50,709 nucleotides of DNA from a phage: the sequence record NC_105617.1. One strand, 5' to 3'. A model generated the notes under the pieces. That model did no database searches. It was given only the letters and a program-made list of their open reading frames with translations, and was not told the origin of the DNA. Shown here piece by piece: positions 27,670-48,895 of the stretch; the stretch's first letter is position 1, and each line of letters opens with the position of its first letter. The position numbers and the translations under genes were made by a program.

Positions 27670-27720
27670 TAGCACTTTTTGCTAAAAACGTTTACTGTAT
27701 GCCGTGTATTATATCGTAAA
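27670..27720 (+). promoter_or_regulatory. Box-hairpin-(-10) cassette upstream of helicase
   Basis: tagcactttttgctaaaa, 22-nt spacer, TATTAT; hairpin cgtttac/gtaaacg. Confidence 0.5.
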
Positions 27721-27750
27721 CGATACAACGATTCAAAGGATTAAATAGCC

Positions 27751-29769
27751 GTGACAATTAACATCAAAAAGCAAATCGCATTACTTGGCGATGACTATAT
27801 AAAACGCACTCAAGAACGATTCACTGTTGGTGAGGTCGTTCCGTATCCGTACCAGGTTGTTGCTTATGCTGAGATCGCAAAACGCCTATCAAATTACGAG
27901 CATCCATTCTTTGTTAAGGCGTCAGTGTCTGCTGGTAAGACAATCATTTTCGCTATGGTTGCAAAGCAGTGTCAAAAAATGGGCTTAAAAATGCTTGTGC
28001 TGGCTCGCCAGGGTGAGATTGTCGATCAGGATAGCGAAGAGATCGATAACTTCGGGGTAACTAACTCCATATTCTCAGCGTCACTTGGAATCAAGTCCTG
28101 CTACTTCCCGATCGTGGTTGGCTCTGAGGGCACTGTTGCAAATGGTTTAAATAATGAGTTGGCTGATTTTGTCCCTCACGTAATCGGGATAGATGAATGT
28201 CACCAGGTGGATTGGGAAGACCTTGCGCAAGCCATAGACGGAAAGGAAACGATGGAACAGATGCGGGGAGAAAAAGGGAAAATTATCATGGACGGTGATA
28301 TTCCTCTGATTGGTAATGATGGAAAGCCTCTTCTTGGAACTAAGCGCAGTCAGTACACGATCGTAATCATGGAAATGATGCGACGCTGTAAAGAGGTTCA
28401 CGGTCACGACCTTAGAATATTTGGTATGACTGGTTCTGAATTTAGGGGCGTAGTTCCTATTCTTGTTGAGAATCCAAAGGCGTTAGGCTTCTGGCGTGAG
28501 CGCGTTACTGATATAGACACCAACTACCTTATTGAGTTTGGCTCAGTCGTTCCGACTATATTCGGTTCTACGGACGGAGTTCACTACGATCTTGATAAAT
28601 TTAAGGCATCAAGCGAGGATGGGGTACAGGACTTTGCAGAGAAAGATATGAAGGCAATGGAAGATGAGATCCTTCATGATAAATCTCTTACTCAGCGAAT
28701 CATGCAAATGGTTGCCAAAAAGGCTGAAGAGCGTAACGCAGTTCTGATCACATGCGCCGGGGTGCGTCACTGCAAAGAGGCAGCGGCGGCACTACCACCA
28801 GGAAGCACATATGCAATTATTACTGGCGACACAGACACTAAAACGCGCAAGAAGATTCTTGATGATGTTAGGGCCGGGAAAATTAAATACACCTTTCAGG
28901 TCATGGCGCTAACTACTGGCGTTAACGTTCCAAATTGGGATTTCAGTGTAATACTTCGCAAGATAGGATCTCTTACCTTGCTGATTCAGCTTTTGGGTAG
29001 AGGTATGCGACTTCTTAAATCCTGGCAGGTTGCTGAAGGGATGGTTAAGCAAGACCATCTTGTATGGGATTTCGCAGGCACGATGGATGAGTTGGGGCAG
29101 CTTTATTTCGATCCTATACTTGAGCAGGCTCAGTTCCAGAAGCGATTTGAGAACGGAAAAGACCCTAAAACGTGCCCGAAATGTGGTTGCGTAAATAGCT
29201 TCTATGCTCGCCGATGCGTTAACGTTATCGACGGTGAGCGCTGTGATCATTTCTGGACTTCTCAGATTTGCGAGGACCAGGTTGATGAGCGCACTGGGAA
29301 AATTCTTGTCAAAGGGTGCGGTGCCGAGAATGACGTTGTGGCCCGAGTCTGTCGCTGTTGCGATGTTTCTCTTGTTGATCCTAACCTTAAGTTATCCGGT
29401 AAGGCTTACACCAAGAATGACTGGTACGAGGTCAAGAATTTTGAAGTTACGTTAACCAAAAACCAAAAGGGTGTGATATACAAATACACGCTTATTAATG
29501 ATGAGGGTGATGAGTTCAAGGCGTATGAAAAATTCTTCCCTGAGTCAGACTCTAAGATTTGCGGTACGCTATGGAAAACTAAAGGAGTATTACCTCACGT
29601 ATCAGATCCTAAAATGCGTCGATACTTTATCGGAATGAAGAACGCTATCAAGATCGTGCAATACTCTCATCATATAGCGCATCCGGTACGCGTTACTCAT
29701 AGGCGCAACCAGAAGAAGGAAGATATTATTTCACGCAAAGATTTCGGTATGGAGGATATCCCGGAATGA
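27751..29769 (+). CDS. SF2 DEAH-box helicase
   Basis: GTG start; motif I SAGKT, motif II GIDECHQ, motif VI QLLGRGMR; C-terminal Cys-rich zinc-ribbon-like region. Confidence 0.8.
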   Translation: MTINIKKQIALLGDDYIKRTQERFTVGEVVPYPYQVVAYAEIAKRLSNYEHPFFVKASVSAGKTIIFAMVAKQCQKMGLKMLVLARQGEIVDQDSEEIDNFGVTNSIFSASLGIKSCYFPIVVGSEGTVANGLNNELADFVPHVIGIDECHQVDWEDLAQAIDGKETMEQMRGEKGKIIMDGDIPLIGNDGKPLLGTKRSQYTIVIMEMMRRCKEVHGHDLRIFGMTGSEFRGVVPILVENPKALGFWRERVTDIDTNYLIEFGSVVPTIFGSTDGVHYDLDKFKASSEDGVQDFAEKDMKAMEDEILHDKSLTQRIMQMVAKKAEERNAVLITCAGVRHCKEAAAALPPGSTYAIITGDTDTKTRKKILDDVRAGKIKYTFQVMALTTGVNVPNWDFSVILRKIGSLTLLIQLLGRGMRLLKSWQVAEGMVKQDHLVWDFAGTMDELGQLYFDPILEQAQFQKRFENGKDPKTCPKCGCVNSFYARRCVNVIDGERCDHFWTSQICEDQVDERTGKILVKGCGAENDVVARVCRCCDVSLVDPNLKLSGKAYTKNDWYEVKNFEVTLTKNQKGVIYKYTLINDEGDEFKAYEKFFPESDSKICGTLWKTKGVLPHVSDPKMRRYFIGMKNAIKIVQYSHHIAHPVRVTHRRNQKKEDIISRKDFGMEDIPE

Positions 29770-30182
29770 TTACAGATAAAGGCGATTACTTAGAGTTTTA
29801 CGAGCGAGATCCTAGCGACACGAGAAAGGAGGACGCTCATCAAGTAGACTGCGTGTCTTGGTTGAAATACAATTTTCCTCAGCTTCTATTTTGGCACACA
29901 GTTAACGAAGGTGAAAAAACAATCACATCGGCGCTCAGGGACGAGCAAGCCGGATTGCTTAAAGGTGTTTCGGACTTCGTTATCCTGATTGGTGTAAACT
30001 CACGTTACCCGTTCGCAGCTATCGAACTCAAACGGGTTAATAAGTCCGGCAAGGGAAAGGCGTCACCAGTCAGCGATAAGCAAAGGGAGTTTCTCAAAAA
30101 GGTTCGGGATCGCGGTGGATTCTCTGCCGTTGCATACGGATTTGAGCAATTCAAGCTGGCAATATACGATTTAACTAAATAG
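29766..30182 (+). CDS. VRR-NUC domain nuclease
   Basis: 138 aa with D...ELK signature (SDFVILIG...AIELK) typical of VRR-NUC PD-(D/E)xK nucleases; overlaps helicase stop. Confidence 0.55.
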   Translation: MITDKGDYLEFYERDPSDTRKEDAHQVDCVSWLKYNFPQLLFWHTVNEGEKTITSALRDEQAGLLKGVSDFVILIGVNSRYPFAAIELKRVNKSGKGKASPVSDKQREFLKKVRDRGGFSAVAYGFEQFKLAIYDLTK

Positions 30183-30228
30183 CACTTTTTGTTAAAACTG
30201 CCTGAATGGAATCTGGCATTATTATCCC
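30180..30228 (+). promoter_or_regulatory. Box-hairpin-(-10) cassette upstream of dam
   Basis: TAG stop of upstream gene = box start; ttgtta + 22 nt + CATTAT; near-duplicate of minus cassette 40057-40099. Confidence 0.5.
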
Positions 30229-30249
30229 ACCGAAACGAGAGGATTAAAA

Positions 30250-30963: not shown

Positions 30964-31211
30964 TGAACGATAAAATGATTCCGGTTAAGTTAACTGATCA
31001 AGGTTTATGGCTGCTTTATCGAGCTACCTGCTGCGAAATTATGGAGAGAAACGGATTGACTCAGGATGTTATTGGTTGCGATCTGTGGGAGTTCACTAGT
31101 TCTCTTGATATGTCTTTCGACGAGATAAAAAGTGAATGCATAGAGAATTGGCCTTCAATCATACAGAAAGACGTGGAAGAACTTAAAGCTGATACAATCG
31201 TAAAGCACTAA
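30960..31211 (+). CDS. Hypothetical protein
   Basis: ATGA overlap with dam stop, RBS GAGGAAAG; 83 aa. Confidence 0.4.
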   Translation: MMNDKMIPVKLTDQGLWLLYRATCCEIMERNGLTQDVIGCDLWEFTSSLDMSFDEIKSECIENWPSIIQKDVEELKADTIVKH

Positions 31212-31250
31212 TTGCTAAAAATACCCGGCGAAAGTCGGGTATAGTTATTT
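31204..31250 (+). promoter_or_regulatory. Box-hairpin-(-10) cassette
   Basis: agcacTAAttgctaaaaa + 22 nt + TATAGT; hairpin tacccg/cgggta. Confidence 0.5.
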
Positions 31251-31277
31251 CATCAAAACGAAATGAGGAATCAGAAG

Positions 31278-31487: not shown

Positions 31488-31737
31488 ACGAGAGGTTTGG
31501 GAGCACGCGAAGGAATGCGGAATATCAGACGATATAGCACTAATAGCAAAATATTTCGATATAAAGGATGTTAGCATTATCTCAAATGGCAAGATTTCAT
31601 TTATGGAGGATATGCCGAGAAAAATGCATAGAGTGCCAGCAACTCCGTCACTTGAGTTTTATCGTGAAGAGGGAAAGAGAATTGATCGAGAACGAAAAAC
31701 AGCAAAGAACAACAAGTCTTCCAGGCTTAAACATTAA
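31465..31737 (+). CDS. Hypothetical protein
   Basis: 90-aa ORF overlapping upstream gene end; basic C-terminus. Confidence 0.35.
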   Translation: MLIKKQGKREVWEHAKECGISDDIALIAKYFDIKDVSIISNGKISFMEDMPRKMHRVPATPSLEFYREEGKRIDRERKTAKNNKSSRLKH

Positions 31738-32047: not shown

Positions 32048-33199
32048 ATGTCACAAGCTAAAATCACTACCGAGCAACTTATTGAAGAGCGCATGAGCGG
32101 ACTTACACTTCGCGAGATTGCGGAAAAGTACGGCATGCACATTCGCACTGTTGAAGCTCGTCACGCAAAACTTGCAAAGGAAGGTCACTTCCACGGTAAC
32201 GAGCATGTTGCTAAGAACGTACCGGAAGGATTCATGGTAAAAGGCACATCAACGATGATTCGCGGCGATGGGACCGAGGTAGTGCGATGGGTTAAGACCG
32301 ATCAGGACCGTGAGAAGATTGCGGCAATGATGGAAGCAGCGCGTATTGCATTCTGTGAAGACTTGCCGAGAGCAAAACCAACTGAGCTACTCACATCGCA
32401 AGGGCTTACAACCGCTATTGGCAAGCTGGCACTCTACCCGGTGTTCGATCTTCACATTGGCGCGCTCGCTCACAAGCATGAATGCGGAGAGAACTACTCT
32501 ACAGACGTAGCGGAAAAAGTGCTGAATGACTTCTTTAACTACGCGATCGATATTGCCCCGAACGCAGAGAAGGCTGTTCTGTTAATCGGCGGCGACTTCC
32601 TTCACTCAGACGGTCTTGATTCTGTTACCCCGGCAAGCGGTCACGTTCTGGATCAGGATTCACGATATGCGAAATTGGTGCATGTGGCTATTCGATCGGT
32701 GCGAAGAGCTATCGACAAAATGCTGACTAAACACAAAGAGGTCGAAGTTCAGGTTATCGAAGGGAACCACGACCAGGCCGGAATGATTTGGCTACGCGCT
32801 GCAATGGCTGCATACTATGAGGACGAGCCGCGAGTATTCGTTGACGTTAGTCCTATGATTCTGCATAAGACCCGCTGGGGAAATACCTTGTTGGGATACA
32901 CTCACGGTCACACGATGAAAAAGGCAGACACGCGACTTGCAGCGATGGCGGCAGACTTCCGTGCAGACTTCGGTGAAAGCAAATACGTGTATACTCACAG
33001 TGGACACTGGCACCATCAAACAATCACAGAACACTCGTTAGGTATTGATGAGGTTCACGGGCAGTTAGGCGCGAAAGATGCATACGCCGCGCGAGGCGGG
33101 TGGCGCTCATATCGCCAGGCGGCGGTAATCGTTTACGATAAACAGTTTGGTGAAATCGGTCGATTCATCTATCGTCCAGAAATGACAGGATCGCACTAA
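32048..33199 (+). CDS. Calcineurin-like metallophosphoesterase with N-terminal HTH (sigma70 region 4-like)
   Basis: Motifs DLH, GGDFLHSDG, GNHD, GHTH/GHWH; N-terminal LTLREIAEKYGMHIRTVEARHAKL resembles sigma-70 region 4.2 / LuxR-type HTH. Confidence 0.6.
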   Translation: MSQAKITTEQLIEERMSGLTLREIAEKYGMHIRTVEARHAKLAKEGHFHGNEHVAKNVPEGFMVKGTSTMIRGDGTEVVRWVKTDQDREKIAAMMEAARIAFCEDLPRAKPTELLTSQGLTTAIGKLALYPVFDLHIGALAHKHECGENYSTDVAEKVLNDFFNYAIDIAPNAEKAVLLIGGDFLHSDGLDSVTPASGHVLDQDSRYAKLVHVAIRSVRRAIDKMLTKHKEVEVQVIEGNHDQAGMIWLRAAMAAYYEDEPRVFVDVSPMILHKTRWGNTLLGYTHGHTMKKADTRLAAMAADFRADFGESKYVYTHSGHWHHQTITEHSLGIDEVHGQLGAKDAYAARGGWRSYRQAAVIVYDKQFGEIGRFIYRPEMTGSH

Positions 33200-33235
33200 T
33201 CGCCAAAAACTCCCGAAGGGATTCGGGTATATTGA
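33192..33235 (+). promoter_or_regulatory. Box-hairpin-(-10) cassette (degenerate box)
   Basis: cgcacTAAtcgccaaaaac + 22 nt + TATATT; hairpin cccgaa/ttcggg. Confidence 0.45.
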
Positions 33236-33262
33236 CCACATAGAAAACAAAGAGGGTATTTC

Positions 33263-34890: not shown

Positions 34891-34927
34891 GATGTTTTCC
34901 TTCAGGTCGTTTCATTTCGATGAAACA

Positions 34928-34970
34928 AATATACCCGATACGAGATCGGGTGTTTTAACAAAAAGTGCTA
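34928..34970 (-). promoter_or_regulatory. Box-hairpin-(-10) cassette (minus)
   Basis: Minus strand tagcactttttgttaaaac + 22 nt + TATATT; hairpin cccgat/atcggg. Confidence 0.5.
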
Positions 34971-35079
34971 TTTGTACCTTTTCACATGAAGGAGCAACTC
35001 GCCATCCTGATCGCAAAGATTGTGTTCGCTGTCATTGTTGGCCCTCATTGAAGTAAGTAACAGGCTGAGTAACCCCTGT

Positions 35080-35491: not shown

Positions 35492-37060
35492 TTAACCCAT
35501 CAGTCTAGGATTGATGAAAACAATATCATCAATGCGGCAAGTGTAGTTCATCTCTTCGAGCGTGATCAGCAGGCTATCGATTCGCTCAGATACTTTCTGT
35601 TGACCGTTGAACGGAGTAACGTTCCGGCACTTTGCAACGATGCTATGAATAGGAGCGCGCCCTTTATTCTTCTTTGCGATCTCAGTGATAACATCAATCA
35701 GCTTACGAGATTCAGCCTCATCACCAGCATACCCGGCAGCGCTGGCAGACGACAGATAAGTTCTGGAAAGCTCATTGAAGATCATGATCGCTTCCTGCAT
35801 TGTTTCAAGGTCAATCTCACGGTTGGAACGGTTCGGTGATTCACCCTCCCAATTCTTGATCGTGTGGAGAACTGAAGCAATACGCAATGCGTGCTTATCG
35901 AACTTACCGAGATGACCGCGTAGCATTGAGTGCGAGTATTTGCCACCTGCGGCGAAATCCGGCTCCATTGCCTGACGTGCAAGGTTTAATTCACGCATAG
36001 CATTACGACTTACAGAAAGAACAACGTTTTCCTCCTTCATAATATTGTGCACAAGTCGATAATATTTACTCACCAATCCTCGATCGACTTCCTTGTACAG
36101 TGCATCACCATTTTCATCGCAAAGGATACGAGTACCTAAAAGAGGTTCCTCACGAACAAGAAGGAAACGCTCAGATACACCGATACCTCGTTGGCCTGCG
36201 TCCATGATACCTTTGATTGTTTCATCCTGCGCAATAACGCAGATGGAACCGACAGGGCAAAGGGACAAGTTGTTATCCTGGTTGGAACGCGCTACCTCCA
36301 TATGGTTTTTATCCCACGCCTTAAGGATAAGCTCACTATTTGATTTCTTGTCTGAACCACCATAAGTCAGGCCGAGCAATGTATTGATTGCTGTCGCCTC
36401 ATCAGAGATTACTGAGAAGTGACCTTGAACAGCCGCCACCTTCGCAAGACCTTCAGGTGTAGGATCTGATACCGCGAAAACAATATCAGCCATCTTCTTG
36501 ATCTTCTCTTCCAGTTTTTCTTTGTCTTCGTACAGCGCCGCCGTCGTGTTACCCTTCGGGTCGTTTTTAATTTCCTTCTCGACCTGACGTAGCTGACTGG
36601 TTAAGCGGATACGCTCCTTTTTTCTCTCTTCGTTCAGTCGCTGAATTTCTGCACGCATAGGCGTAATCGCTGCGGAGTTAATCGCAGATTTACCTGTTGA
36701 CGGTGGCTGGCTGATTACCATGTAAAGAGCGGTGGGTTGTTCTTCTCCGTGATATTGCACCCAAAACTTCCCGAGCATCGCGGCTGAGATGCACCCAATG
36801 AAATGAGCGTACGCAGACGAAACAGGGAACTGTACAGACTCAGCCTTTGCTTTTGCATATTCGAATACCAGGTTATCGCCACCTAGCGAAATCAGAGGGA
36901 ACTTATCGTTGCCGCTATTGATATCGATCGGATCTTGCCAAAATGAAACTGAGTCACCATAGCTGTTTTCACGAATTGCGATTGCCACCGGATTAACTCC
37001 AGTGCTATTGGCGATCTCAATAATCTGTTGGTAATTCAGTTTTGGCTTAATATTAAACAT
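35492..37060 (-). CDS. P-loop NTPase (putative replication/helicase-associated)
   Basis: Start at ATG 37060 with RBS AAGGAG; Walker A PPSTGKSA and Walker B-like VIAQDE separated by a coiled-coil insertion. Confidence 0.45.
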   Translation of the reverse strand: MFNIKPKLNYQQIIEIANSTGVNPVAIAIRENSYGDSVSFWQDPIDINSGNDKFPLISLGGDNLVFEYAKAKAESVQFPVSSAYAHFIGCISAAMLGKFWVQYHGEEQPTALYMVISQPPSTGKSAINSAAITPMRAEIQRLNEERKKERIRLTSQLRQVEKEIKNDPKGNTTAALYEDKEKLEEKIKKMADIVFAVSDPTPEGLAKVAAVQGHFSVISDEATAINTLLGLTYGGSDKKSNSELILKAWDKNHMEVARSNQDNNLSLCPVGSICVIAQDETIKGIMDAGQRGIGVSERFLLVREEPLLGTRILCDENGDALYKEVDRGLVSKYYRLVHNIMKEENVVLSVSRNAMRELNLARQAMEPDFAAGGKYSHSMLRGHLGKFDKHALRIASVLHTIKNWEGESPNRSNREIDLETMQEAIMIFNELSRTYLSSASAAGYAGDEAESRKLIDVITEIAKKNKGRAPIHSIVAKCRNVTPFNGQQKVSERIDSLLITLEEMNYTCRIDDIVFINPRLMG

Positions 37061-37089
37061 CACAATAAACTCCTTAGTTGACGGTGTAA

Positions 37090-37132
37090 ATGATACACCG
37101 CCAATGGTATACGCTTTTTGCAAAAAGTGCTA
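37090..37132 (-). promoter_or_regulatory. Box-hairpin-(-10) cassette (minus)
   Basis: Minus strand tagcactttttgcaaaaa + 22 nt + TATCAT. Confidence 0.45.
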
Positions 37133-37136
37133 TTGG

Positions 37137-37562: not shown

Positions 37563-37589
37563 TCCTGATTGGTTATCTTGAATAAGGCC

Positions 37590-37632
37590 ACTTTATCAAA
37601 TGACCTTACGGCAATATTAACAAATCGTGCTA
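37590..37632 (-). promoter_or_regulatory. Box-hairpin-(-10) cassette (minus)
   Basis: Minus strand tagcacgatttgttaat + 22 nt + TAAAGT; near-duplicate of plus cassette 45457-45505. Confidence 0.5.
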
Positions 37633-37633
37633 T

Positions 37634-38074: not shown

Positions 38075-38107
38075 TTTTAATTCCTTTATTTCGTTTGGTG
38101 TGGGAGT

Positions 38108-38151
38108 AATATACCTTACTCCCTATTTATTGTCTTTAGCAATTAGTGCTA
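38108..38151 (-). promoter_or_regulatory. Box-hairpin-(-10) cassette (minus)
   Basis: Minus strand tagcactaattgctaaag, hairpin gggagta/tactccc with TATATT in loop (spacer 23). Confidence 0.45.
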
Positions 38152-38295
38152 TCAGTACTCGGAAATTACTTTACACTCTTTGATTGTTCCACCTAGAACT
38201 ACTTTCTGCATCATTGCTTTTTGGTGGCTATCGTAAACGCGAACATTTTTTACGCTGTTAAATTTGCCAGTATAGAAAGTGTGAATATAAATCAT
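38152..38295 (-). CDS. Small hypothetical protein (micro-ORF)
   Basis: 47-aa ORF below track cutoff; ATGA overlap with upstream stop; its own stop TGA directly abuts a TAGCAC box. Confidence 0.25.
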   Translation of the reverse strand: MIYIHTFYTGKFNSVKNVRVYDSHQKAMMQKVVLGGTIKECKVISEY

Positions 38296-39193: not shown

Positions 39194-39224
39194 GGTGATT
39201 GCCTCGTTTTCTGTAGATGGGATA

Positions 39225-39267
39225 ACTATACCAGCCATCCATGCCGTGCGTTTAGCAAAAAGTGCTA
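39225..39267 (-). promoter_or_regulatory. Box-hairpin-(-10) cassette (minus)
   Basis: Minus strand tagcactttttgctaaacg + 22 nt + TATAGT. Confidence 0.5.
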
Positions 39268-39270
39268 TCC

Positions 39271-39608: not shown

Positions 39609-39639
39609 CTGTTGATTCTCCTGATTGGTTGATGTGTTA

Positions 39640-39682
39640 ACTATACCCCGATCTCACTCGGGGCGTTTAGCAATTCGTGCTA
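39640..39682 (-). promoter_or_regulatory. Box-hairpin-(-10) cassette (minus)
   Basis: Minus strand TAA stop + tagcacgaattgctaaac + 22 nt + TATAGT; hairpin ccccga/tcgggg. Confidence 0.55.
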
Positions 39683-40018
39683 TTAATCGATATCAAACTC
39701 AGCGGCGTATGCTTTCTTGAAGCCAGCTTCGCGCATAGTGCGCTTGCTGATTTTGCGCGGGAATTTGTACTGGCTGTTAGGCTTGACCCACCAGAAGCAG
39801 GAAGTCTCGCGAACGATTTCATATTTACCGTAACGAGTGAAGGTATCGCGTTCCATATCAGGCTGATTAACACAGGTCAGGAATTTAGCTGCTTTGTCTT
39901 CAGTTTTGATTTCTTCCCAAACGAATGAGTCCATTCCGTTAACCTTGCAAGCAACCATGATGTACTCAACGCCGTTTTCGATTTTGATGATTTCGTTACC
40001 GCGATTTTCGTATTTCAT
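39683..40018 (-). CDS. Hypothetical protein
   Basis: Start at ATG 40018 with RBS AGGAG downstream of cassette 40057-40099. Confidence 0.45.
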   Translation of the reverse strand: MKYENRGNEIIKIENGVEYIMVACKVNGMDSFVWEEIKTEDKAAKFLTCVNQPDMERDTFTRYGKYEIVRETSCFWWVKPNSQYKFPRKISKRTMREAGFKKAYAAEFDID

Positions 40019-40056
40019 TTTCTTGCTCCTGATGTGTATCTCGTTTCGATGAGGTA

Positions 40057-40099
40057 ATAATGCCAGATTCCATTCCGGCAGTTTTAACAAAAAGTGCTA
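40057..40099 (-). promoter_or_regulatory. Box-hairpin-(-10) cassette (minus)
   Basis: Minus strand tagcactttttgttaaaac + 22 nt + CATTAT; box encodes C-terminus of MTase-like gene. Confidence 0.5.
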
Positions 40100-40788
40100 T
40101 TTGCGATCGCTTTAAAAAATCCCCTGGGCGACAGGGATCGTATCAACTTAGTTTTGGCAGATTTGCCGCCTAGCTTACTGTGCTGTGCAGAGTACCCGTC
40201 AGGCAGGCTTACAGGTTTTCTCTCGGGCATGACAAAATCGTCAGAGGTCCAAAGGCAAGTTTTCTTCGGGTAAGCATCGCGCGGCGCAATATACATCGGG
40301 AACCAGGGGTGTGAGTCATTCTCAGGAAGATAGCCGCCATACTCCCAGGGATTGAAGGAGTGATTTGGTTTTCTCCAGGCAGATGACAGGACGCTAACCG
40401 GATTCTCAATGATGTAAGTCACGCCCAGGCTATCGCCAATGTTCGCAGCAATCCGGGCGGTGGCAACAGCCTTCTCCTGGAATAACTGATCGCGTTCACG
40501 CTTTCTTGCGAAGTGAGCGGCACCACTAACAGCTAGGTCAGTGCACGGCGGGAAGGCCATAATGAAATCCGGCTTGCCATACACGCCAGCGATAGCATCA
40601 CGCTCAAACGCTGCGTCAATGAACACGTTCACATACTCAATGTTCGGATGCTCCACTCGGGCATTGTACTTTGCGTAATCTCCGTGATCGGCTCCGTCAA
40701 AGTTGAAGCACATTACCTTGTGACCTTGCTTAGCTAGCTCATGACCAGCAAGACCGGAACCGTCGAATAGGGACCAAATCAACTTCAT
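40084..40788 (-). CDS. DNA cytosine-C5 methyltransferase-like protein (compact, noncanonical)
   Basis: Motif I-like LFDGSGLAG, motif IV-like FPPCTDLAVSGA (PC dipeptide, T in place of Q), motif VI-like IIENPVS; only 234 aa; last five codons (NSTFC-stop) are encoded by a TAGCAC box. Confidence 0.5.
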   Translation of the reverse strand: MKLIWSLFDGSGLAGHELAKQGHKVMCFNFDGADHGDYAKYNARVEHPNIEYVNVFIDAAFERDAIAGVYGKPDFIMAFPPCTDLAVSGAAHFARKRERDQLFQEKAVATARIAANIGDSLGVTYIIENPVSVLSSAWRKPNHSFNPWEYGGYLPENDSHPWFPMYIAPRDAYPKKTCLWTSDDFVMPERKPVSLPDGYSAQHSKLGGKSAKTKLIRSLSPRGFFKAIANSTFC

Positions 40789-40928: not shown

Positions 40929-41018
40929 GTCGATTCCTCTGATTGGTTGATGAGATGAATCATACCCGATCGGCAGTGCTGATGTGTTGCAAAAAATGCT
41001 ATTCCAATAGTTGCTCAT

Positions 41019-41610
41019 TATTCCACCATCAATGGAATATCTGGAATAATTGCGATCCCGATTGATCTCGAATGATGAAATGTGATTGTTGCATGGTGTG
41101 CAACTGTTGATGTGATTGTTTCTTAGAATGCAATGATTGTGAGAGGGGGGATTTAGTGTTACCCGGTTCGCCTGGTGGTCATCTCCATTTTTAGCAAAAC
41201 GTGCTATCGATTACAATTTAACTTGTCACGACTGTAATATTTGTCTAGAATCGCACTTGTGACAAAATTACGCACTGTGACGCATCACAATAGACATATA
41301 GATATATGTATATATATAATATATATAGTGTTTTTTTTATTTATATATATAGATAATTATATTGTAATAGTTGTGTATAGCCGTCTTACATTGTCTAGCG
41401 TACTGTTGGCATATTTCTATCTGCATGTTTATATATACAGTACTTTTTTGAGGGCTATATATTTCTATAGTGACTCTAGACAGCTAGACAAATATTACAC
41501 AGCTTAAAATTGGCTTGCAGTCGTTGACAGCTCTACGTCGCTCTGTCACAATGGCAATTGTTGACATGCTATGACACCATTTACACACCAATAGACAAAG
41601 AGGGCACATT
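41019..41610. repeat. AT-rich divergent control region with repeated TGTCAC/GTGACA and TTGTCTAG/CTAGACAA motifs (hub 2)
   Basis: Repeats tgtgattgtt x2, acttgtcac/acttgtgac, ttgtctag x2, ctagaca x2, atagaca x2; (TA)n tracts 41295-41360. Confidence 0.5.
41524..41552 (+). promoter_or_regulatory. Candidate sigma70 promoter for plus-strand early block
   Basis: TTGACA-17 bp-CACAAT about 58 nt upstream of ATG 41611. Confidence 0.4.
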
Positions 41611-42126
41611 ATGAGCAATACCAATCAGGAATTAAAAATCACCGACATGATTCGACTAACCTGCGATGCAATGTACCGCGACAAAGGCATGACCGAGTTC
41701 TCTTTCGTGGCTGATGATATGGCCCTAGAAGCAGCGCGATTCTACTTTCGTGGCCAGGAGGTAAGTGATAGCGATCTTGAATCTGCCGCTGCCGGATGGG
41801 TGGACCAGAACCAGGGGGAGGTAGAGAAGCGATTCAAATCTGCTTTCATCACTCCAATCATTACCCGACACTTTTGCAAGTATGGCAAGGTGGCAAAGGT
41901 GAAGGTAGGCCGGAATGACGCGGCAATCACGATGATAACCGTTATCGTTACCGACGAAGAGGTTCCGGTGAAGAAGCGCCGCAGCCGGAAAAAAGTTAGC
42001 CTGGCCGACTGCCTTGATTCGTTTGACGTTGATGTTAGCAAGCTATCCGATAGCGAGTTAATGGTTCGTGATGTGAATGAGATCGTGCGCCAGATGAAAG
42101 CACATATTGAAAAGTGTGGACTGTAA
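41611..42126 (+). CDS. Hypothetical protein
   Basis: 171 aa, first gene of the plus-strand early block, RBS AGAGGG; basic patch KKRRSRKK. Confidence 0.5.
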   Translation: MSNTNQELKITDMIRLTCDAMYRDKGMTEFSFVADDMALEAARFYFRGQEVSDSDLESAAAGWVDQNQGEVEKRFKSAFITPIITRHFCKYGKVAKVKVGRNDAAITMITVIVTDEEVPVKKRRSRKKVSLADCLDSFDVDVSKLSDSELMVRDVNEIVRQMKAHIEKCGL

Positions 42127-42138
42127 GGAGAGATGAGT

Positions 42139-42378
42139 ATGAGCAAGATTAAGCATGACGCCCTGAAAGGTATCTTGATGCGACTAAACCCAGGTGAAGC
42201 ATTCCAGCTTAACCCCGAGACGTTTGGATTCAATGGTGATTATCGTACAACCTTCGAATTTGTCCGGTATGTAAAGAAAGAGTTTGGATTCGAAGTTATT
42301 CACGCAGGTCTTATCAATGGCATCCAGACATTCATCTTTAAGCCAAATGAGATTCGTTGCTTCACGCTGATGAAATAG
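42139..42378 (+). CDS. Hypothetical protein
   Basis: ATG 42139 preferred over 42133 for RBS spacing; stop TAG lies in a TAGCAC box. Confidence 0.45.
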   Translation: MSKIKHDALKGILMRLNPGEAFQLNPETFGFNGDYRTTFEFVRYVKKEFGFEVIHAGLINGIQTFIFKPNEIRCFTLMK

Positions 42379-42424
42379 CACTTTTTGTTAAAACCGGAGC
42401 GGGATAACCTGGTATAGTTATCCC
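42376..42424 (+). promoter_or_regulatory. Box-hairpin-(-10) cassette
   Basis: TAG stop = box start; ttgtta + 22 nt + TATAGT; hairpin gggataa/ttatccc. Confidence 0.55.
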
Positions 42425-42449
42425 ATCGACAACGAATGAGGAAACGAAG

Positions 42450-42644
42450 ATGGAAACGCAAATTGACGTAGTGGTTGTTCAGCGTGACTCCACCCATGAA
42501 AAGGGGCTATTCAAGAAAGGAACTGAAATCACGATAGACCTTGAGGATATGGTTGCATATCACTCGGGTCTTACCTGGAACGTGGTGCGCGTAGGCAGCG
42601 ACTACAAACTCAAAGGCTTTAACACTTACTTTGCGGAGGTTTAA
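42450..42644 (+). CDS. Hypothetical protein
   Basis: 64 aa behind cassette 42376-42424. Confidence 0.45.
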   Translation: METQIDVVVVQRDSTHEKGLFKKGTEITIDLEDMVAYHSGLTWNVVRVGSDYKLKGFNTYFAEV

Positions 42645-42646
42645 TT

Positions 42647-43117
42647 ATGACAACCATTACCGTATTTCTTGCTAAAGATGAGCTTGATGGCGAAATGTCA
42701 TTCTTCGCGTTTGAGCACAAGACCGGATCGCACTGGCATGCGTACACTCACTACACGGTTATCTCAATCGAGGCGTTCGAAGGTGATTCACTCACTGATA
42801 AGCTGAGTTATTTTGTTGAAGCGGTTAAGGCTAGCGGCGGCTGTGAGTGGAAAGAAGATCACGAAGTTATGCGAATGCTTGAGATGGTCAATCCGGTTCG
42901 ACTTGAGTCTTTCGAGCTTGATTCTTACGTGAGCATTAAGGTGAGAAAGCCGGGTGAGTTGTTGCCAGGGATGCGTGTGCTGACTGGTTACTCAGGTCGT
43001 AAAGTGTGGCGAACCATATCGAAGATTCGACAGCGCTCAGAAACATGCTACAGCGTGTTCTTTGATGACGGCTGGAATGAGGTTGCTGGTAGTAACGTGA
43101 AGTATCTTACCAAATAG
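42647..43117 (+). CDS. Hypothetical protein
   Basis: 156 aa; stop TAG inside a TAGCAC box. Confidence 0.45.
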   Translation: MTTITVFLAKDELDGEMSFFAFEHKTGSHWHAYTHYTVISIEAFEGDSLTDKLSYFVEAVKASGGCEWKEDHEVMRMLEMVNPVRLESFELDSYVSIKVRKPGELLPGMRVLTGYSGRKVWRTISKIRQRSETCYSVFFDDGWNEVAGSNVKYLTK

Positions 43118-43163
43118 CACGAATTGCTAAAACCGGATCGGGGTATCTTGCTATAGTTACCCC
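43115..43163 (+). promoter_or_regulatory. Box-hairpin-(-10) cassette
   Basis: TAG stop = box start; ttgcta + 22 nt + TGcTATAGT; hairpin ggggta/tacccc. Confidence 0.55.
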
Positions 43164-43196
43164 ATCAAAACGACACACCAATCAGAGGATTTCACC

Positions 43197-43460
43197 ATGT
43201 CAATCGTCAAGAATAGAAACGCAATTGAAGCTACTCGCCACAACAAGCAACACGCGATTTTCATTGCTCGCTACTGCTCAAGCATCAATGGTGGCTTGCA
43301 GTATCGCCGCTATGCAGTGATTGAGCTTTCCCCATACATTTACAAAGAGTATCGAGAGGAGAATGGCAAGTGGATTGAGATTGAGGGCGTAACGAGCTTC
43401 TTGATCTGGAATGGTGAATTTCAGGGGTACGACGATATCAGCACTTTAATTGAGGAATAA
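43197..43460 (+). CDS. Hypothetical protein
   Basis: 87 aa behind cassette 43115-43163 with CCAATCAGAGGA leader. Confidence 0.45.
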   Translation: MSIVKNRNAIEATRHNKQHAIFIARYCSSINGGLQYRRYAVIELSPYIYKEYREENGKWIEIEGVTSFLIWNGEFQGYDDISTLIEE

Positions 43461-43466
43461 ATAATC

Positions 43467-43694
43467 ATGCCACGTTACAGCAACCTAACCAAACTAATCC
43501 GCGTCAACGGGCACATGATCCCGGCTAAATCTACTCACTGCGCGAAAGGCGCAAAGCACGGATTATATTTCAAGTGGCGCGGTCAATGGAACTTCACGGC
43601 GGTGAGCAATTTTTACATGCGCGTTCCTGGTGATGATCCGCAATCGGTAGTAGAAAACTCAATCGGCGACAACAAGATCGAGGTACTAAAATGA
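43467..43694 (+). CDS. Hypothetical protein
   Basis: 75 aa, basic. Confidence 0.45.
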   Translation: MPRYSNLTKLIRVNGHMIPAKSTHCAKGAKHGLYFKWRGQWNFTAVSNFYMRVPGDDPQSVVENSIGDNKIEVLK

Positions 43695-43801
43695 ACTTCA
43701 ATACAATAGCTCTATGGTCTGCCGTCTGGTTCTTCTGCATGGGTCACGTTATGGTCGGCATCGTGGTAATGCTTCTCCTGTGTGCGGGGGCGTTCGAATG
43801 A
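43691..43801 (+). CDS. Small transmembrane peptide (micro-ORF)
   Basis: 36 aa MNFNTIALWSAVWFFCMGHVMVGIVVMLLLCAGAFE; ATGA overlap with both neighbours. Confidence 0.3.
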   Translation: MNFNTIALWSAVWFFCMGHVMVGIVVMLLLCAGAFE

Positions 43802-43971
43802 TGCGAATATTGATTTGCATGATGGCGGCGGTCGCCCTGGCTATCCTGGTAGTGTCAGGATGCGGAGAGGTCAGAGATAGCTGTCATAAGACCGGGAACC
43901 AGGTTACTACGCTTGTGATGGTTGGCAACGTTTTGCTACCAATCACATCAAATGAGATCACTTGCGAATAG
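43798..43971 (+). CDS. Small lipoprotein (putative)
   Basis: 57 aa from ATG 43798; signal peptide MMRILICMMAAVALAILVVSGC with lipobox VSGC. Confidence 0.4.
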   Translation: MMRILICMMAAVALAILVVSGCGEVRDSCHKTGNQVTTLVMVGNVLLPITSNEITCE

Positions 43972-43980
43972 GATTTAAAA

Positions 43981-44172
43981 ATGGCTGATTTTATGCACCA
44001 AATGATTGCAGTATTCAAAGGTAGCGAAGATGAGGAAGTAAAAGAGTGCTTTACTGTCGACAAGCATTATAACGCTTCGCTAACCAGCTTCGGTAACATC
44101 TCATTGCTTGATGATAATGGCGATCCCTGGGTATTCGATGAAGATACGGATTGCTTCGAAATTAAAGAATAG
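43981..44172 (+). CDS. Small acidic protein
   Basis: 63 aa rich in D/E; stop TAG inside a TAGCAC box. Confidence 0.45.
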   Translation: MADFMHQMIAVFKGSEDEEVKECFTVDKHYNASLTSFGNISLLDDNGDPWVFDEDTDCFEIKE

Positions 44173-44218
44173 CACTTTTTGTTAAAACGCGATCATGTGG
44201 TTGCGATATAGTAACCAC
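44170..44218 (+). promoter_or_regulatory. Box-hairpin-(-10) cassette
   Basis: TAG stop = box start; ttgtta + 22 nt + TATAGT; hairpin gtggtt/aaccac. Confidence 0.55.
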
Positions 44219-44243
44219 ATCGACAACGAATGAGGACGAGAAC

Positions 44244-44732
44244 ATGAAAATTAAATTACTGTGCACTGGCGGTTACAAAGGCTTTACTCGCGACCTGGAA
44301 TCAGACCCGATTATCGTTGACGCTGTGAAGTGCGATGATAGCACGGGCGGCTACCGCGTCAAGGTTGACGACCTGGTAAAAGCTGGCGTGTACGATCTGG
44401 ATTACGGCCTATCGGTTAGTCCAGTATTTGGCCCGGCTGACTTCAACGAAAATGACGGAACGATGTTCTTTTTTGAATGGGAAGTCCAGGCAAACATCAA
44501 GCCGCGCAAGGTTCGACTTCTCAACAATGGCGGGTATCCTATGCGCCCTGGTTATGAGAATCGCACGTTCCCGGTTATTGTTGACTTTGAGGAAATTACC
44601 AGCACCCTGGCTTACGTTGGAAATGAACAACTCAATGCTGTAGGTTTTTGGGGTGGGATGAATAAAGAGTCTCTTTGCTTCTTCCATCGCGACACCGAAC
44701 CGTTCTCTATTGAGTGCGAGTTAGTTTACTGA
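44244..44732 (+). CDS. Hypothetical protein
   Basis: 162 aa behind cassette 44170-44218. Confidence 0.5.
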   Translation: MKIKLLCTGGYKGFTRDLESDPIIVDAVKCDDSTGGYRVKVDDLVKAGVYDLDYGLSVSPVFGPADFNENDGTMFFFEWEVQANIKPRKVRLLNNGGYPMRPGYENRTFPVIVDFEEITSTLAYVGNEQLNAVGFWGGMNKESLCFFHRDTEPFSIECELVY

Positions 44733-44780
44733 GCACGAATTGTTAAAAGGGGATTCGTCCTGACTGGTACAATCCACATA
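44730..44780 (+). promoter_or_regulatory. Box-hairpin-(-10) cassette
   Basis: tGAgcacgaattgttaaaag + 22 nt + TGgTACAAT. Confidence 0.5.
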
Positions 44781-45310: not shown

Positions 45311-45459
45311 TGGCTTCATGGGTTTTGATTATCTTAATGAGTACCGGGCCAGATCACGTATACATGGAAAGCCAACAATCATGCAACAAGGCTCGGGAGG
45401 TGATTTCAGAGAACAGGCCGTTCGGATACGAAGTAAAAACGATGTGCGTTAAACGATAG
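45310..45459 (+). CDS. Small hypothetical protein (micro-ORF)
   Basis: 49 aa with hydrophobic N-terminus (MASWVLIILMSTG); TAATG overlap upstream; stop TAG is the TAG of a TAGCAC box. Confidence 0.3.
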   Translation: MASWVLIILMSTGPDHVYMESQQSCNKAREVISENRPFGYEVKTMCVKR

Positions 45460-45505
45460 CACGAATTGATAAACCTTCCGCAAGGCCATTTGATATAGTG
45501 GCCTT
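45457..45505 (+). promoter_or_regulatory. Box-hairpin-(-10) cassette
   Basis: TAG stop of micro-ORF = box start; ttgata + 22 nt + TGaTATAGT; hairpin aaggcca/tggcctt. Confidence 0.55.
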
Positions 45506-45539
45506 ATTGAAGCAAGGCAACCAATCAGAGGAATCAGCT

Positions 45540-46670: not shown

Positions 46671-46677
46671 CTTAAAG

Positions 46678-46709
46678 TGGGAATCGTTCCTGAGCGGTTC
46701 CCTATTTTT
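46678..46709 (+). terminator. Terminator-like hairpin
   Basis: gggaatcg/cggttccc stem (one G-T pair) followed by T-rich tract. Confidence 0.35.
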
Positions 46710-46720
46710 ATGAGGTGAAT

Positions 46721-46843: not shown

Positions 46844-47046
46844 CAGCAGAAGATGCAGCACGTGAAGCAGTGGAAGGAATGCGACCAAATACCTCCAGAA
46901 TCGCACACTACTACAAATTTGACGTATCGGCAGTGCAATTGGTCCATGAAATTTTAAGGCTCCCACAAGTCGATTCAGCGCGTGTGGTGGCGTGCTTAAA
47001 AAATTATTTTTGCATCACTATTAAAACGAATAGCACGAATTGCTAA
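46828..47046 (+). CDS. Hypothetical protein
   Basis: 72 aa; last five codons (NSTNC-stop) are encoded by a TAGCAC box. Confidence 0.45.
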   Translation: MATIMTAEDAAREAVEGMRPNTSRIAHYYKFDVSAVQLVHEILRLPQVDSARVVACLKNYFCITIKTNSTNC

Positions 47047-47079
47047 AACCTATCAAGGGGAATGCGCTATGATTCCCCT
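47031..47079 (+). promoter_or_regulatory. Box-hairpin-(-10) cassette
   Basis: Box encodes last codons NSTNC-TAA of upstream gene; ttgcta + 22 nt + TATGAT; hairpin ggggaat/attcccc. Confidence 0.5.
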
Positions 47080-47103
47080 ACACCAACGAACGAGGGAATA
47101 CTC

Positions 47104-47550
47104 ATGAAACACTTGATTTGCATTGATACACCTAACAATGAACACACTCTGCACGGCATTGGGATGTTCAAAGGCCACTACATGACAGCAAGCATTTATG
47201 ATGCGCATCGCGACGATGGCGATCTGATGATTACGTCAAAAGACGTTAATCCGTACATCATGCAGAATCTTGGCAACAATGAATATATGGCTTACGGATG
47301 CAACGCGGTGTACAAGAATGTCAAGATCCGTAAGCGTATTGTTCGCGCATTTAAGAAAATCGCCATGAAGCACTGGAAGATGAGCAAGAAGGAGGCTGGG
47401 CGCTGGGCGCGTAACGTTGCTGATTCATACTTCTATCGTAACGGTGAGTCGTGCCACTTCCTGATCGATGAAATGATGGAAAATTATAGCGGCACATTCC
47501 GCCAAAGTGATTTTGACGCTTGGGCTTACTACGAGGTAGATTGCTGGTAA
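47104..47550 (+). CDS. Hypothetical protein
   Basis: Start at ATG 47104 with RBS GAGGG, downstream of cassette 47031-47079. Confidence 0.45.
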   Translation: MKHLICIDTPNNEHTLHGIGMFKGHYMTASIYDAHRDDGDLMITSKDVNPYIMQNLGNNEYMAYGCNAVYKNVKIRKRIVRAFKKIAMKHWKMSKKEAGRWARNVADSYFYRNGESCHFLIDEMMENYSGTFRQSDFDAWAYYEVDCW

Positions 47551-47597
47551 TAGCACGAATTGCTAAAACTTACTCAAGGGCATTTGGTAGAATGCCC
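47551..47597 (+). promoter_or_regulatory. Box-hairpin-(-10) cassette
   Basis: ttgcta + 22 nt + TGgTAGAAT; hairpin gggcat/atgccc; CCAATCAGAGGA leader downstream. Confidence 0.55.
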
Positions 47598-47633
47598 TTC
47601 GTTGAGTTAAACAACCAATCAGAGGAATAAATC

Positions 47634-48167
47634 ATGGATAAAATTACAATTTGGGGTCAAACTATCAACCTGTTTCTCGGTCCGCGCCGCGTCGCAATCT
47701 TTGACTTTGACGGAACACTGAGTGACGGATCAAAGCGCCTTCACCTGTTGCCAAAAAAGGATTTGCACTTGACTGAAAGCTGGTCTGAGTTTAATCGAGC
47801 CGCAATATTTGATAACCCCATCCAGAGCACGATTGAGGTGATGAACTCATTACGCCAAGCTGGGGTGTATGTAATCATTTTAACCGGGCGAAGCGATGAG
47901 GTGCGTTACGCATCTGAGTTATGGCTTAAGCATCACGGTGCGCGATATGATTACTTAGTCATGCGACCGCACACAGACAACCGGAAAGACACAGTGATGA
48001 AAGAGGAAGCGGTGCGAGCGATCGGTATTGAAAACATCCTCGCGGCTTGGGATGATTCACCGCAAATTATTCCATTATTCCGGTCGCTTGGAATAACCAC
48101 ATATGCTGTAGTTGACTATGGCGATAACGTTCACGATCATTTAAAATCGCACGGGGTAGAGAAATGA
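47634..48167 (+). CDS. HAD-superfamily phosphatase (polynucleotide 3'-phosphatase / nucleotidase-like)
   Basis: HAD motif I FDFDGTL, motif II ILTGRSD, DNRKDTVMKEE segment, motif IV AWDDSPQ; resembles the phosphatase domain of T4 polynucleotide kinase as recalled. Confidence 0.6.
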   Translation: MDKITIWGQTINLFLGPRRVAIFDFDGTLSDGSKRLHLLPKKDLHLTESWSEFNRAAIFDNPIQSTIEVMNSLRQAGVYVIILTGRSDEVRYASELWLKHHGARYDYLVMRPHTDNRKDTVMKEEAVRAIGIENILAAWDDSPQIIPLFRSLGITTYAVVDYGDNVHDHLKSHGVEK

Positions 48168-48274
48168 ACCTATACGAATTTATTGCAGCACATCCGGTAT
48201 TGACGGTTATCATCCTGCTAATCATCAATCACACTATCATAAATGTAGCAAAATTATTTTTAGGGAGATACTGA
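48164..48274 (+). CDS. Small transmembrane peptide (micro-ORF)
   Basis: 36-aa ORF MNLYEFIAAHPVLTVIILLIINHTIINVAKLFLGRY; ATGA overlap with phosphatase stop. Confidence 0.3.
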   Translation: MNLYEFIAAHPVLTVIILLIINHTIINVAKLFLGRY

Positions 48275-48275
48275 C

Positions 48276-48848
48276 ATGAAAACAGCTATCGTTTTAAACG
48301 GCGCGCCTGGAGCGGGAAAAGACACTATCGGATGCATCCTGGCTGACACTTACGATCACGTAGCCTTGCGCAGCTTCAAAGCGCCAATGTTTGAGATTGC
48401 CCGGGCAATCCTGGGTGAAGCTAACTACGAGTATTTCATGTTCTTGTATGAGGACCGTCGATATAAAGAAGAGCCAGCATCCATCCTGAACGGTAAAAGC
48501 CCACGCCAGTTTATGATCTGGATTAGCGAGGAAGTCATCAAGCCGCAGTTCGGAAATCGCTTCTTCGGTATGCGAGCGGAAAGCAAGGTGAAAGAGTCAC
48601 ACTCCCTTTCTGTATTTACTGACGGTGGATTCAAAGATGAGATCTTGCAAATGATTGAAGGCGATATCCAGGTCAAGCTATGCCGCATACATCGCAACGG
48701 CTGCAACTTCGATAACGACAGTCGAGATTATATCTACCTGGATGATATGATCGGTGTCAACGGTTATCAGGAATGTGACTTCTTCTCTGTCGAAGGTCAT
48801 CCAGAAATTACCGCTCAGCACATAGCCGCTACGTTCATCAACAAATAG
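48276..48848 (+). CDS. P-loop nucleoside-monophosphate kinase-like protein (dNMP kinase candidate)
   Basis: Walker A GAPGAGKDT at N-terminus; LNGKSP segment; overall resemblance to phage dNMP kinases as recalled. Confidence 0.5.
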   Translation: MKTAIVLNGAPGAGKDTIGCILADTYDHVALRSFKAPMFEIARAILGEANYEYFMFLYEDRRYKEEPASILNGKSPRQFMIWISEEVIKPQFGNRFFGMRAESKVKESHSLSVFTDGGFKDEILQMIEGDIQVKLCRIHRNGCNFDNDSRDYIYLDDMIGVNGYQECDFFSVEGHPEITAQHIAATFINK

Positions 48849-48895
48849 CACTAATTGCTAAAACGTCGGTGGGGTGATTTGATATAGTCACCTCA
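48846..48895 (+). promoter_or_regulatory. Box-hairpin-(-10) cassette
   Basis: TAG stop = box start; ttgcta + 22 nt + TGaTATAGT; hairpin ggtga/tcacc. Confidence 0.55.

Follow-up and report, generated by a model that had tools for sequence, protein, structure and literature searches.

In the promoter–stem-loop (PeSL) cassettes of T4-type phages, an early promoter is combined with a stem-loop of variable sequence that is located between the upstream element and the -10 hexamer or overlaps the -10 (PMC2839356). One PeSL stem-loop is a strong terminator in vivo, and recombination between PeSLs generates insertions, deletions, and mini-circles (PMC2839356; PMC4122927). A 21-nt direct repeat, aaATAGCACnnnTTGnTAAAA, was published in 2024 from phage TLS, which carries 21 copies, and the same repeat was noted in T1, Rtp, and Rogue1, co-oriented with transcription and approximately 76 nt before start codons (PMC11447400). 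The function of the repeat was left open, the guesses being a stoperator, an enhancer site, or an UP element, and the TLS annotation includes only three sigma70-like promoters (PMC11447400). Here, we analyze a family of modules in which this repeat, hereafter referred to as the box, is accompanied by a -10-like hexamer and a hairpin in a phage genome (NC_105617.1; the window, i.e., the whole stretch of DNA that was analyzed, is 50,709 nt long). The window between 27 and 49 kb is ~93% identical to Tunavirus genomes, e.g., those of Shigella phage Sfin-1 and Escherichia phage XJA18, and by its sequence the phage is a Tunavirus, a T1-like siphovirus of the Drexlerviridae. Based on the sequence and arrangement of their parts, we lean toward reading the modules as micF-type class II marbox promoters that are fused to RNA hairpins and passed on as exchangeable gene cassettes.

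The marbox is an asymmetric 20-bp site that is bound by the monomeric AraC-family proteins MarA, SoxS, and Rob; RamA also binds it in Klebsiella, Salmonella, and Enterobacter. At class II promoters, RNA polymerase is recruited by an activator that sits on the -35 region and touches both sigma region 4 and the alpha C-terminal domain. The published definition of the marbox is 5'-gcannwwntgnnaaa-3' (PMC12052159) and its forward orientation is likewise defined (PMC12052159, PMC10268841); forward sites cluster at -41, the class II promoters being without a -35 (PMC10268841). In the cryo-electron microscopy structure of Rob and RNA polymerase on micF, the G is positioned at -47 and Rob holds sigma region 4 off the -35 (PMC9178005); the micF soxbox is centered at -41.5 (PMC9638938).

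Box sequence and promoter geometry

An earlier note on this DNA listed 19 three-part sites, and all 19 are present with the coordinates and strands it assigned. The spacer within the box had been given as N4/5, a pattern that yields zero literal matches; the true spacer is N3, and in all 19 sites the box reads (A)TAGCAC-N3-TTGYTAAA(AC). The TLS repeat agrees with the box of the window in sequence, in orientation, and in its three spacer variants (TTT, GAA, and TAA/AAA), and the TLS paper reports neither a fixed distance to a -10, nor a hairpin, nor an identity with the marbox (PMC11447400).

The box fits gcannwwntgnnaaa at every specified position, and the window contains 22 perfect matches to this 15-nt definition versus ~0.4 expected from base composition. 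With the consensus AYnGCACnnWnnRYYAAAYn, attributed to Martin et al. 1999, the box agrees at 18 of 19 specified positions. [quoted passage not shown] This maximum is attained by the phage box GCACTAATTGCTAAA, which exceeds all 73 chromosomal sites; the remaining variants score 16.0–17.4 bits, and the module boxes overall (14.4–18.1 bits) are equal to or above most known sites. Thirteen sites in the window reach or exceed the 90th percentile of known sites, compared with 0.04 in shuffles, and one phage box (37130, minus strand; GCACTTTTTGCAAAA) is identical to a Salmonella ChIP-seq site. The recognition elements GCAC and YAAA are 7 bp apart in the box, which is forward-facing, with GCAC distal and AAA proximal to the -10 on the transcribed strand.

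The 22-nt spacing that had been described is the distance from TTGYTA to the hexamer. When the G of GCAC is taken as the reference point, 18 of the 19 sites have the first base of the hexamer at offset 35, and the remaining one (38149, minus strand) has it at offset 36. When no hexamer was presupposed, TAnnnT was found at exactly offset 35 in 42 of 62 perfect boxes from four phages (the window, T1, TLS, and Rtp), and every other offset from 18 to 55 was found in at most five. Five phages supplied 87 modules that were chosen for having a hexamer at offset 34–36; in 76 of these, the offset is 35. The natural E. coli micF promoter, as read from the chromosome sequence, is aCAGCACTGAATGTCAAAAC-N15-TAGAAT-N7-G(+1); the G of its GCAC is 35 nt from the -10, which is the distance in the phage modules to the base pair, and AAAAC is common to both. 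A CA is conserved in the modules 6–7 nt past the hexamer, and CA is the usual context of a transcription start. In sequence, the box is a perfect marbox, and its spacing is exactly that of class II.

The position of the box had already been considered too distant for a sigma70 -35, and our results agree: a consensus two-hexamer sigma70 scan detects no module and shows no enrichment in the window (36 matches vs. 38.7 in shuffles), and at the -35 position the modules read AAAACn, with no recognizable -35 hexamer. The 22-bp spacer and the unenriched scan rule out TTGYTA as a sigma70 -35. The 22-bp gap is explained because the activator, not sigma region 4, would read that DNA. A sigma54 promoter (TGGCAC-N5-TTGCW) is ruled out by the box itself, TAGCAC-N3-TTGC, which has the wrong spacing and AG instead of GG; no module is within 2 mismatches of the sigma54 consensus, and the 19 matches elsewhere compare with 25.9 expected. 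The middle promoters of T4 resemble the modules in that an activator site also replaces the -35, the box has a TTGCT core, and the -10 is kept; however, the MotA box is centered at -30, ~12 bp from the -10, whereas the TTGCT core of the modules is 22 bp from the -10. This spacing rules out a MotA-type middle promoter, and Pfam finds no MotA or AsiA domain.

The modules share with the class II marbox promoters micF, fumC, rfaY, and lpxC P2 the asymmetric box, its orientation, its overlap with the -35, and the lack of a -35 hexamer. In contrast to chromosomal marboxes, which are degenerate, the box is present in at least 25 copies at or near consensus in a virulent phage and, unlike chromosomal class II promoters, many modules have extended -10s and the spacer and discriminator carry an RNA hairpin. 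The extended -10 (TGn) is less frequent than the two thirds initially estimated: it is found in 10 of the 19 sites and in 42 of the 87 modules across five phages, i.e., in approximately half.

The modules share their orientation with their own -10 and with the downstream open reading frame (ORF). Upstream ORFs terminate within or immediately beside the box, in eight cases with the TAG of TAGCAC doubling as the stop codon, and the start codons of downstream genes are 58–81 nt past the G of GCAC. The cassettes, ~50 nt in length and near-identical, recur every 0.4–1 kb and are packed into the ~70 nt between a stop codon and the next ribosome-binding site. The leaders, at offsets +47 to +75 from the G of GCAC, form a few conserved families (e.g., CATCGACAACGAATGAGGA and CAACCAATCAGAGGA), so the similarity of the cassettes reaches through the 5' untranslated region to the ribosome-binding site.

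We propose that host MarA, SoxS, or Rob (or RamA), bound to the box at -35 and acting with the -10 located 35 nt downstream, would activate sigma70 transcription in an activator-dependent manner, and that transcription would start at the conserved CA, about 7–8 nt past the hexamer. No link between the marbox and T1-like phages was found in the literature searched, in which the published repeat does not appear to have been identified as a marbox promoter before.

Hairpins of the spacer and discriminator

The mean folding energy of the 38 nt that follow the box is -12.35 kcal/mol, compared with -4.93 ± 2.96 kcal/mol for random 38-nt windows from the same genome (Mann–Whitney p = 8e-12). The hairpins can be assigned to two classes. 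In class B (12 sites), the 5' arm is at offsets 23–32 and the 3' arm at offsets 37–48, the stem ends at approximately -1/+1, and loop and 3' arm hold the hexamer. The 6 sites of class A have a GC-rich stem that spans offsets ~16–37 and stops where the hexamer starts. The description of a hairpin that always pairs and always holds the hexamer in its loop or 3' arm is correct for class B and does not extend to class A, in which the stem stops at the hexamer, or to the hairpin of module 44733, which is degraded in this phage and intact in relatives. The hairpin probably sits inside the promoter because only the 17-nt spacer and the discriminator are free to vary between the upstream stop and the start site, and it is in the spacer and discriminator that the pairing positions are found.

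When the two strands of the 87 modules are compared, folding is more stable for the sense strand (-10.24 kcal/mol) than for the antisense strand (-7.97 kcal/mol; Wilcoxon p = 1.2e-8), and G-U pairs number 102 in the former and 49 in the latter. Because the sense strand folds better and has more G-U pairs, the hairpin is selected in the RNA of the transcribed strand. Selection had been proposed on DNA or RNA structure; the folding of the sense strand and the G-U excess support the RNA half of this proposal and not the DNA half, and a DNA cruciform reading of the inverted repeats is disfavored by the same asymmetry and excess. Pairing in the class B register is 0.597 versus 0.514 ± 0.017, above all 2000 shuffles, and one clear compensatory exchange (G-C vs. 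U-A) is found inside one orthologous hairpin. An Rfam search of the hairpins matched no known RNA family, and the T1 record labels class A hairpins as rho-independent terminators. On the opposite strand at 33212–33227 and 38102–38123, the module hairpin together with a T-rich stretch scores as an antisense terminator; the T-rich stretch at 33212–33227 is the complement of the A-run of the box.

Given a start site at the conserved CA, the hairpin would be missing from the RNA made by its own promoter and would form only in read-through transcripts from upstream. In read-through RNA, it would probably attenuate or terminate transcription, or shield neighboring mRNA ends from decay; in the latter case, it may block decay at the 3' end of the upstream message or, after processing, protect the 5' end of the downstream message as a stem.

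The comparison with PeSLs drawn in the earlier note is apt, as the positions of class A and class B hairpins match the published positions of PeSL stem-loops (PMC2839356). The PeSLs of RB49, phi1, PST, and nt-1 likewise occur in many copies among small genes of unknown function, and recombination between their copies likewise yields gene insertions and deletions. However, a PeSL contains either a sigma70 promoter close to consensus (TTGACA-N17-TATAAT) or a promoter with a MotA box (the "PmSL" of nt-1), whereas the modules have a marbox 22 bp from the -10; the phage studied here is a siphovirus of another family than the T4-type carriers of PeSLs; and most of its stems are without the polyG/polyC composition of PeSLs, their terminator role being putative. 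The modules do not have the sigma70 promoter with 17-bp spacing by which PeSLs are recognized and are not members of the PeSL family, although they would work like PeSLs.

Candidate readers of the box

A phage factor had been proposed to bind the box, a proposal that our results do not support. The box is, by its sequence, the consensus host marbox in class II geometry, and we found no AraC-type phage protein: MarA, SoxS, and Rob queries gave a best E value of 0.4 against the six-frame translation, and the Pfam domains HTH_18 and HTH_AraC are found in none of the ORFs between 21 and 50.6 kb, the structural genes at 1–20 kb being covered only by the MarA/SoxS/Rob sequence search. These searches speak against a phage-encoded MarA-like protein. 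Two helix–turn–helix (HTH) proteins of the phage had been named as possible readers. The product of 32048–33199 is a phosphoesterase with a weak hint of an N-terminal HTH. The product of 27204–27656 (minus strand) is a Cro/YdaS-like protein with a single HTH, a homolog of T1 gp23, and a member of a transcriptional-regulator family in PHROGs; its predicted recognition helix varies while the box is constant.

The motif search in T1-like relatives suggested by the earlier note shows that Tunavirinae, Tempevirinae, Braunvirinae, and Jhansiroadvirus have retained the module. The box is present in >1000 phage records, nearly all with hosts in the Enterobacteriaceae, and is essentially invariant across subfamilies whose proteins are only 45–60% identical. 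Such invariance is, we infer, more in keeping with a host partner that is itself highly conserved than with a phage regulator that co-evolves with the box.

The Cro/YdaS-like protein is nevertheless the basis of one of the two strongest alternatives, namely that the box is the operator of this regulator, a dimer of which would switch the promoter set off or on in the manner of the stoperator or enhancer site suggested by the TLS authors (PMC11447400). We consider this explanation unlikely. It is consistent with the partial dyad in the box, TAGCA-N5-TGCTA, with half-sites one helical turn apart, and with the occurrence of the regulator in 819 phage records, roughly the box-bearing family, as well as with its PHROGs assignment. 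However, the conservation of the box is asymmetric: the G of GCAC is invariant while its dyad partner is C or T, and AAA(AC) is conserved beyond the dyad where the upstream side has AAA, not TTT. This asymmetry is better matched by a protein that reads the box as a monomer, through two HTH motifs, than by a dimer seated on a partial dyad. The predicted recognition helix also differs between this phage (QTVQGW) and Vibrio phage Vc1 (VRLTNAY), whose boxes are identical, and an operator for a phage regulator would leave the top-range marbox score and the micF spacing without a reason. In addition, the first-expressed genes cannot await a phage-made activator, although this regulator might act as a repressor. 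The stoperators of mycobacteriophage L5 are similarly many, short, asymmetric, intergenic, and oriented with transcription; unlike the box, they are targets of the phage repressor and lie at no set distance from a -10, whereas here the -10 spacing is fixed and the site matches that of a host activator. The fixed 35-nt relation to the -10 argues against assigning the boxes to the stoperators, although a Cro-like regulator is present.

Of comparably low probability, in our view, is the explanation that the promoters are activator-independent, the extended -10 being sufficient and the box acting as an UP-like element or as a weak substitute for a -35. The occurrence of TGn in about half of the modules, a weak TAAAAC 18 bp before the -10, and the resemblance to UP elements mentioned for the TLS repeat (PMC11447400) are compatible with it. 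UP elements, however, are A/T tracts with no invariant GCAC, the box is retained also in modules without TGn, and the strict 35-nt offset and fixed orientation imply a positioned protein contact. That the repeats are mainly recombination or boundary signals, or decoys that soak up MarA, SoxS, and Rob and so dampen the stress response of the host, with a secondary promoter role, is very improbable: a chimeric module with a 1.8-kb deletion in a relative, a hybrid T1-type module in the T4-like phage KP27 (both described below), and the at least 22 consensus sites brought by each replicating genome copy are in its favor, but neither function needs a -10 at a fixed distance, a CA start context, co-orientation, or 58–81 nt to the start codons.

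Several observations weigh against our preferred reading of the modules as marbox promoters fused to RNA hairpins. The Cro-like regulator is found in every family member and, with the partial dyad, could bind the box. Without stress, cells contain little MarA and SoxS, and most Rob is tied up in inactive aggregates (PMC10268841). The half of the modules with TGn could fire without an activator. Vibrio phage Vc1 (L020, NC_054898.2) has at least 10 modules in 24 kb and Pseudomonas phage Motto (L021, ON843697.1) has 14 perfect boxes in 24 kb. For these two T1-like phages, deposited with non-enterobacterial hosts, either the hosts given in the records are questionable or enterobacterial MarA, SoxS, and Rob are not needed for the box to work; if the records are right and such hosts have no marbox-binding activators, the case for dependence on a host factor would be weaker. 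With respect to the hairpin, covariation within a single orthologous hairpin is modest, the relatives being close, and a U-rich tail or canonical terminator form is present in only 2–3 of the 19 hairpins, which leaves termination a putative role. No transcription start data for T1-like phages (Drexlerviridae) were found in the literature searched.

Cassette exchange and genomic arrangement

The suggestion that the cassettes are recombination or boundary signals is borne out in one relative, L007 (loci L003–L016 and L019 were analyzed by alignment and pattern tools). In L007, the 5' half of module 42378 is joined to the 3' half of module 44172, with the junction in GGTATAGT. L007 is colinear with the window through the gene at 42133–42378, continues after the junction into the gene at 44244, and is without an equivalent of window positions 42417–44208 (1.8 kb, six ORFs); this chimeric module and the accompanying deletion show that the cassettes act as recombination sites. 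We posit that the near-identical repeated cassettes would serve homologous recombination, by which gene cassettes are added and removed. An ORF in the cassette-flanked segment missing from L007 (42450–42644, plus strand) matches Pfam PF25180, "phage antiviral trigger protein Gp54" (E = 1.9e-33).

KP27, a T4-like Klebsiella phage (Slopekvirus), has one complete T1-type module (L018 401–447; HQ918180.1 ~91205–91251, minus strand), which consists of TAGCACGAATTGCTAAAAC, TGn and TATATT at offset 35, and then ACACACATCGAAACGA. The other annotated "middle promoters" of KP27 (L019; found by its annotators with MEME) resemble PeSLs (TTGCAT-N17-TATATT, the -35 being covered by a stem-loop) and have the -10, the initial transcribed sequence, and the downstream ACACACATCGAAACGAAAC in common with T1-type modules. 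These sequences suggest that parts of the cassettes are exchanged between unrelated phage families.

The late structural genes of the phage occupy 1–20.1 kb (plus strand), followed by recombination genes, a tail fiber gene, and the primase gene on mixed strands (20–27.7 kb), the helicase, dam, phosphoesterase, and lysis genes (27.75–34.7 kb, plus strand), a leftward gene block (34.7–41.0 kb, minus strand), and small early genes (41.6–50.6 kb, plus strand). A ~600-bp AT-rich non-coding region with (TA)n runs at 41018–41611 corresponds to the ends of the T1 record. Near-consensus sigma70 promoters in the right half of the window are confined to this region: TAGACA-18-TATAAT (41291–41320), TTGTCA-17-TAGAAT (41223–41251), and TTGACA-17-CACAAT (41524–41552). 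From their sequences, they are candidates for the immediate-early promoters.

On the plus strand, the module before the helicase gene (27751) is located at 27669–27719, with the box GCACTTTTTGCTAAA, TATTAT, and a long imperfect hairpin around the -10. The module before dam (30179–30229) has TGn, CATTAT, and a weak class A hairpin, the equivalent of which is annotated as a terminator in the T1 record, and its box TAG is the upstream stop. The class A hairpin of 31202–31252, with 9 bp and a GAAA loop, is followed by TATAGTTATTT and is flagged as terminator-like, and the module ahead of the lysis cluster (33190–33240) combines the box GCACTAATCGCCAAA, with one mismatch, with a class A hairpin and TATATT. 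Among the small early genes, TGn, TATAGT, and a class B hairpin are found at 42375–42425, the left partner in the L007 recombination (GGGATAAC/GTTATCCC), at 43114–43164, and at 45456–45506 (AAGGCCA/TGGCCTT). The right partner, 44169–44219, has a class B hairpin with a compensatory T-A to G-C change in relatives; 44730–44780 has TGn and TACAAT, and its hairpin GGGGATT/AATCCCC, intact in relatives, has one mismatch here. Class B hairpins are also found with TATGAT at 47030–47080 (AGGGGAAT/ATTCCCCT) and with TGn and TAGAAT at 47550–47600, and the module at 48845–48895, with the 18.1-bit box GCACTAATTGCTAAA, has a 15-bp hairpin with 3 G-U pairs, TGn, and TATAGT.

The minus-strand modules of the leftward block include three with class A hairpins: 34921–34971, in which the hairpin is followed by TATATTTGTTT and is flagged as terminator-like; 39633–39683, with GCCCCGA/TCGGGGT and TATAGT; and 40050–40100, with TGn and CATTAT. 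Class B hairpins are found at 37083–37133 (11 bp; box GCACTTTTTGCAAAA, TATCAT), 37583–37633 (12 bp with 3 G-U pairs; TGn and TAAAGT), 38101–38152 (TATATT at offset 36), and 39218–39268 (with G-U pairs; TGn and TATAGT).

Outside of these 19 sites, we identified six extra modules (22923 and 31537 on the plus strand; 40999, 27217, 10453, and 6688 on the minus strand). The module before erf (22920–22970) has a box with one mismatch, TATAAT at offset 34, and a 9-bp class B hairpin, and that at 31534–31584, with TGn, TAGCAT, and a weak hairpin, is conserved in T1 at 40311. The module heading the leftward gene block (40952–41002) has a box with one mismatch and TATGAT at offset 35. Between the genes for the Cro-like regulator and the primase, the module at 27170–27220 has TAACAT in the loop of its hairpin, and the hairpin is followed by TTTTTT; it has a true intrinsic-terminator form and can be compared with the T1 terminator at 35930–35971. 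The last two, 10406–10456 (TGn and TACGAT, in a late-operon intergenic gap; T1 18847, minus strand) and 6641–6691 (TGn and TATGAC; T1 15083 and TLS 15039, both minus strand), point against the late structural genes and are without a downstream ORF; they could produce antisense RNA to late messages.

Four further copies are atypical or bare boxes (14381, 26131, and 50679 on the plus strand; 41204 on the minus strand). At 14378–14440, the box is followed by a canonical terminator (GCCCGC..GCGGGTTTTTTT) and then by TGn and TAGAAT at offset 46, which displaces the -10 by 11 bp, approximately one helical turn, beyond the standard 35. The copy at 26128–26178 has a box with one mismatch and the hexamer TATGAG, without the final T. 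A perfect box with a hairpin and no -10 at the standard offset (41157–41207, minus strand) lies within the AT-rich non-coding region, and a perfect box at 50676–50709 (plus strand) is cut by the window end.

For T1-type transcription, the reading of the modules as marbox promoters offers a concrete and testable explanation. We tentatively suggest, as a possibility that we do not regard as established, that T1-like phages may hard-wire ~25 promoters per genome to MarA, SoxS, Rob, and RamA, the multidrug- and oxidative-stress activators of the host, without an early or middle transcription factor of their own. The mar/sox/rob regulons are induced by antibiotics, salicylate, bile salts, and oxidants. 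If this suggestion is correct, infection would depend on or respond to these stress regulons: phage expression would be gated by antibiotic-tolerance regulators, and replicating phage DNA would titrate the same regulators. The scope would be the Drexlerviridae, with >1000 sequenced genomes that include Klebsiella therapy phages, and the finding would be relevant to synergy or antagonism between phages and antibiotics, to mar/sox/rob mutants that tolerate phage, and to promoter designs that respond to the state of the host. The PeSL idea would then also reach further than the T4-type phages, to promoter–hairpin cassettes that insulate single genes and drive their exchange.

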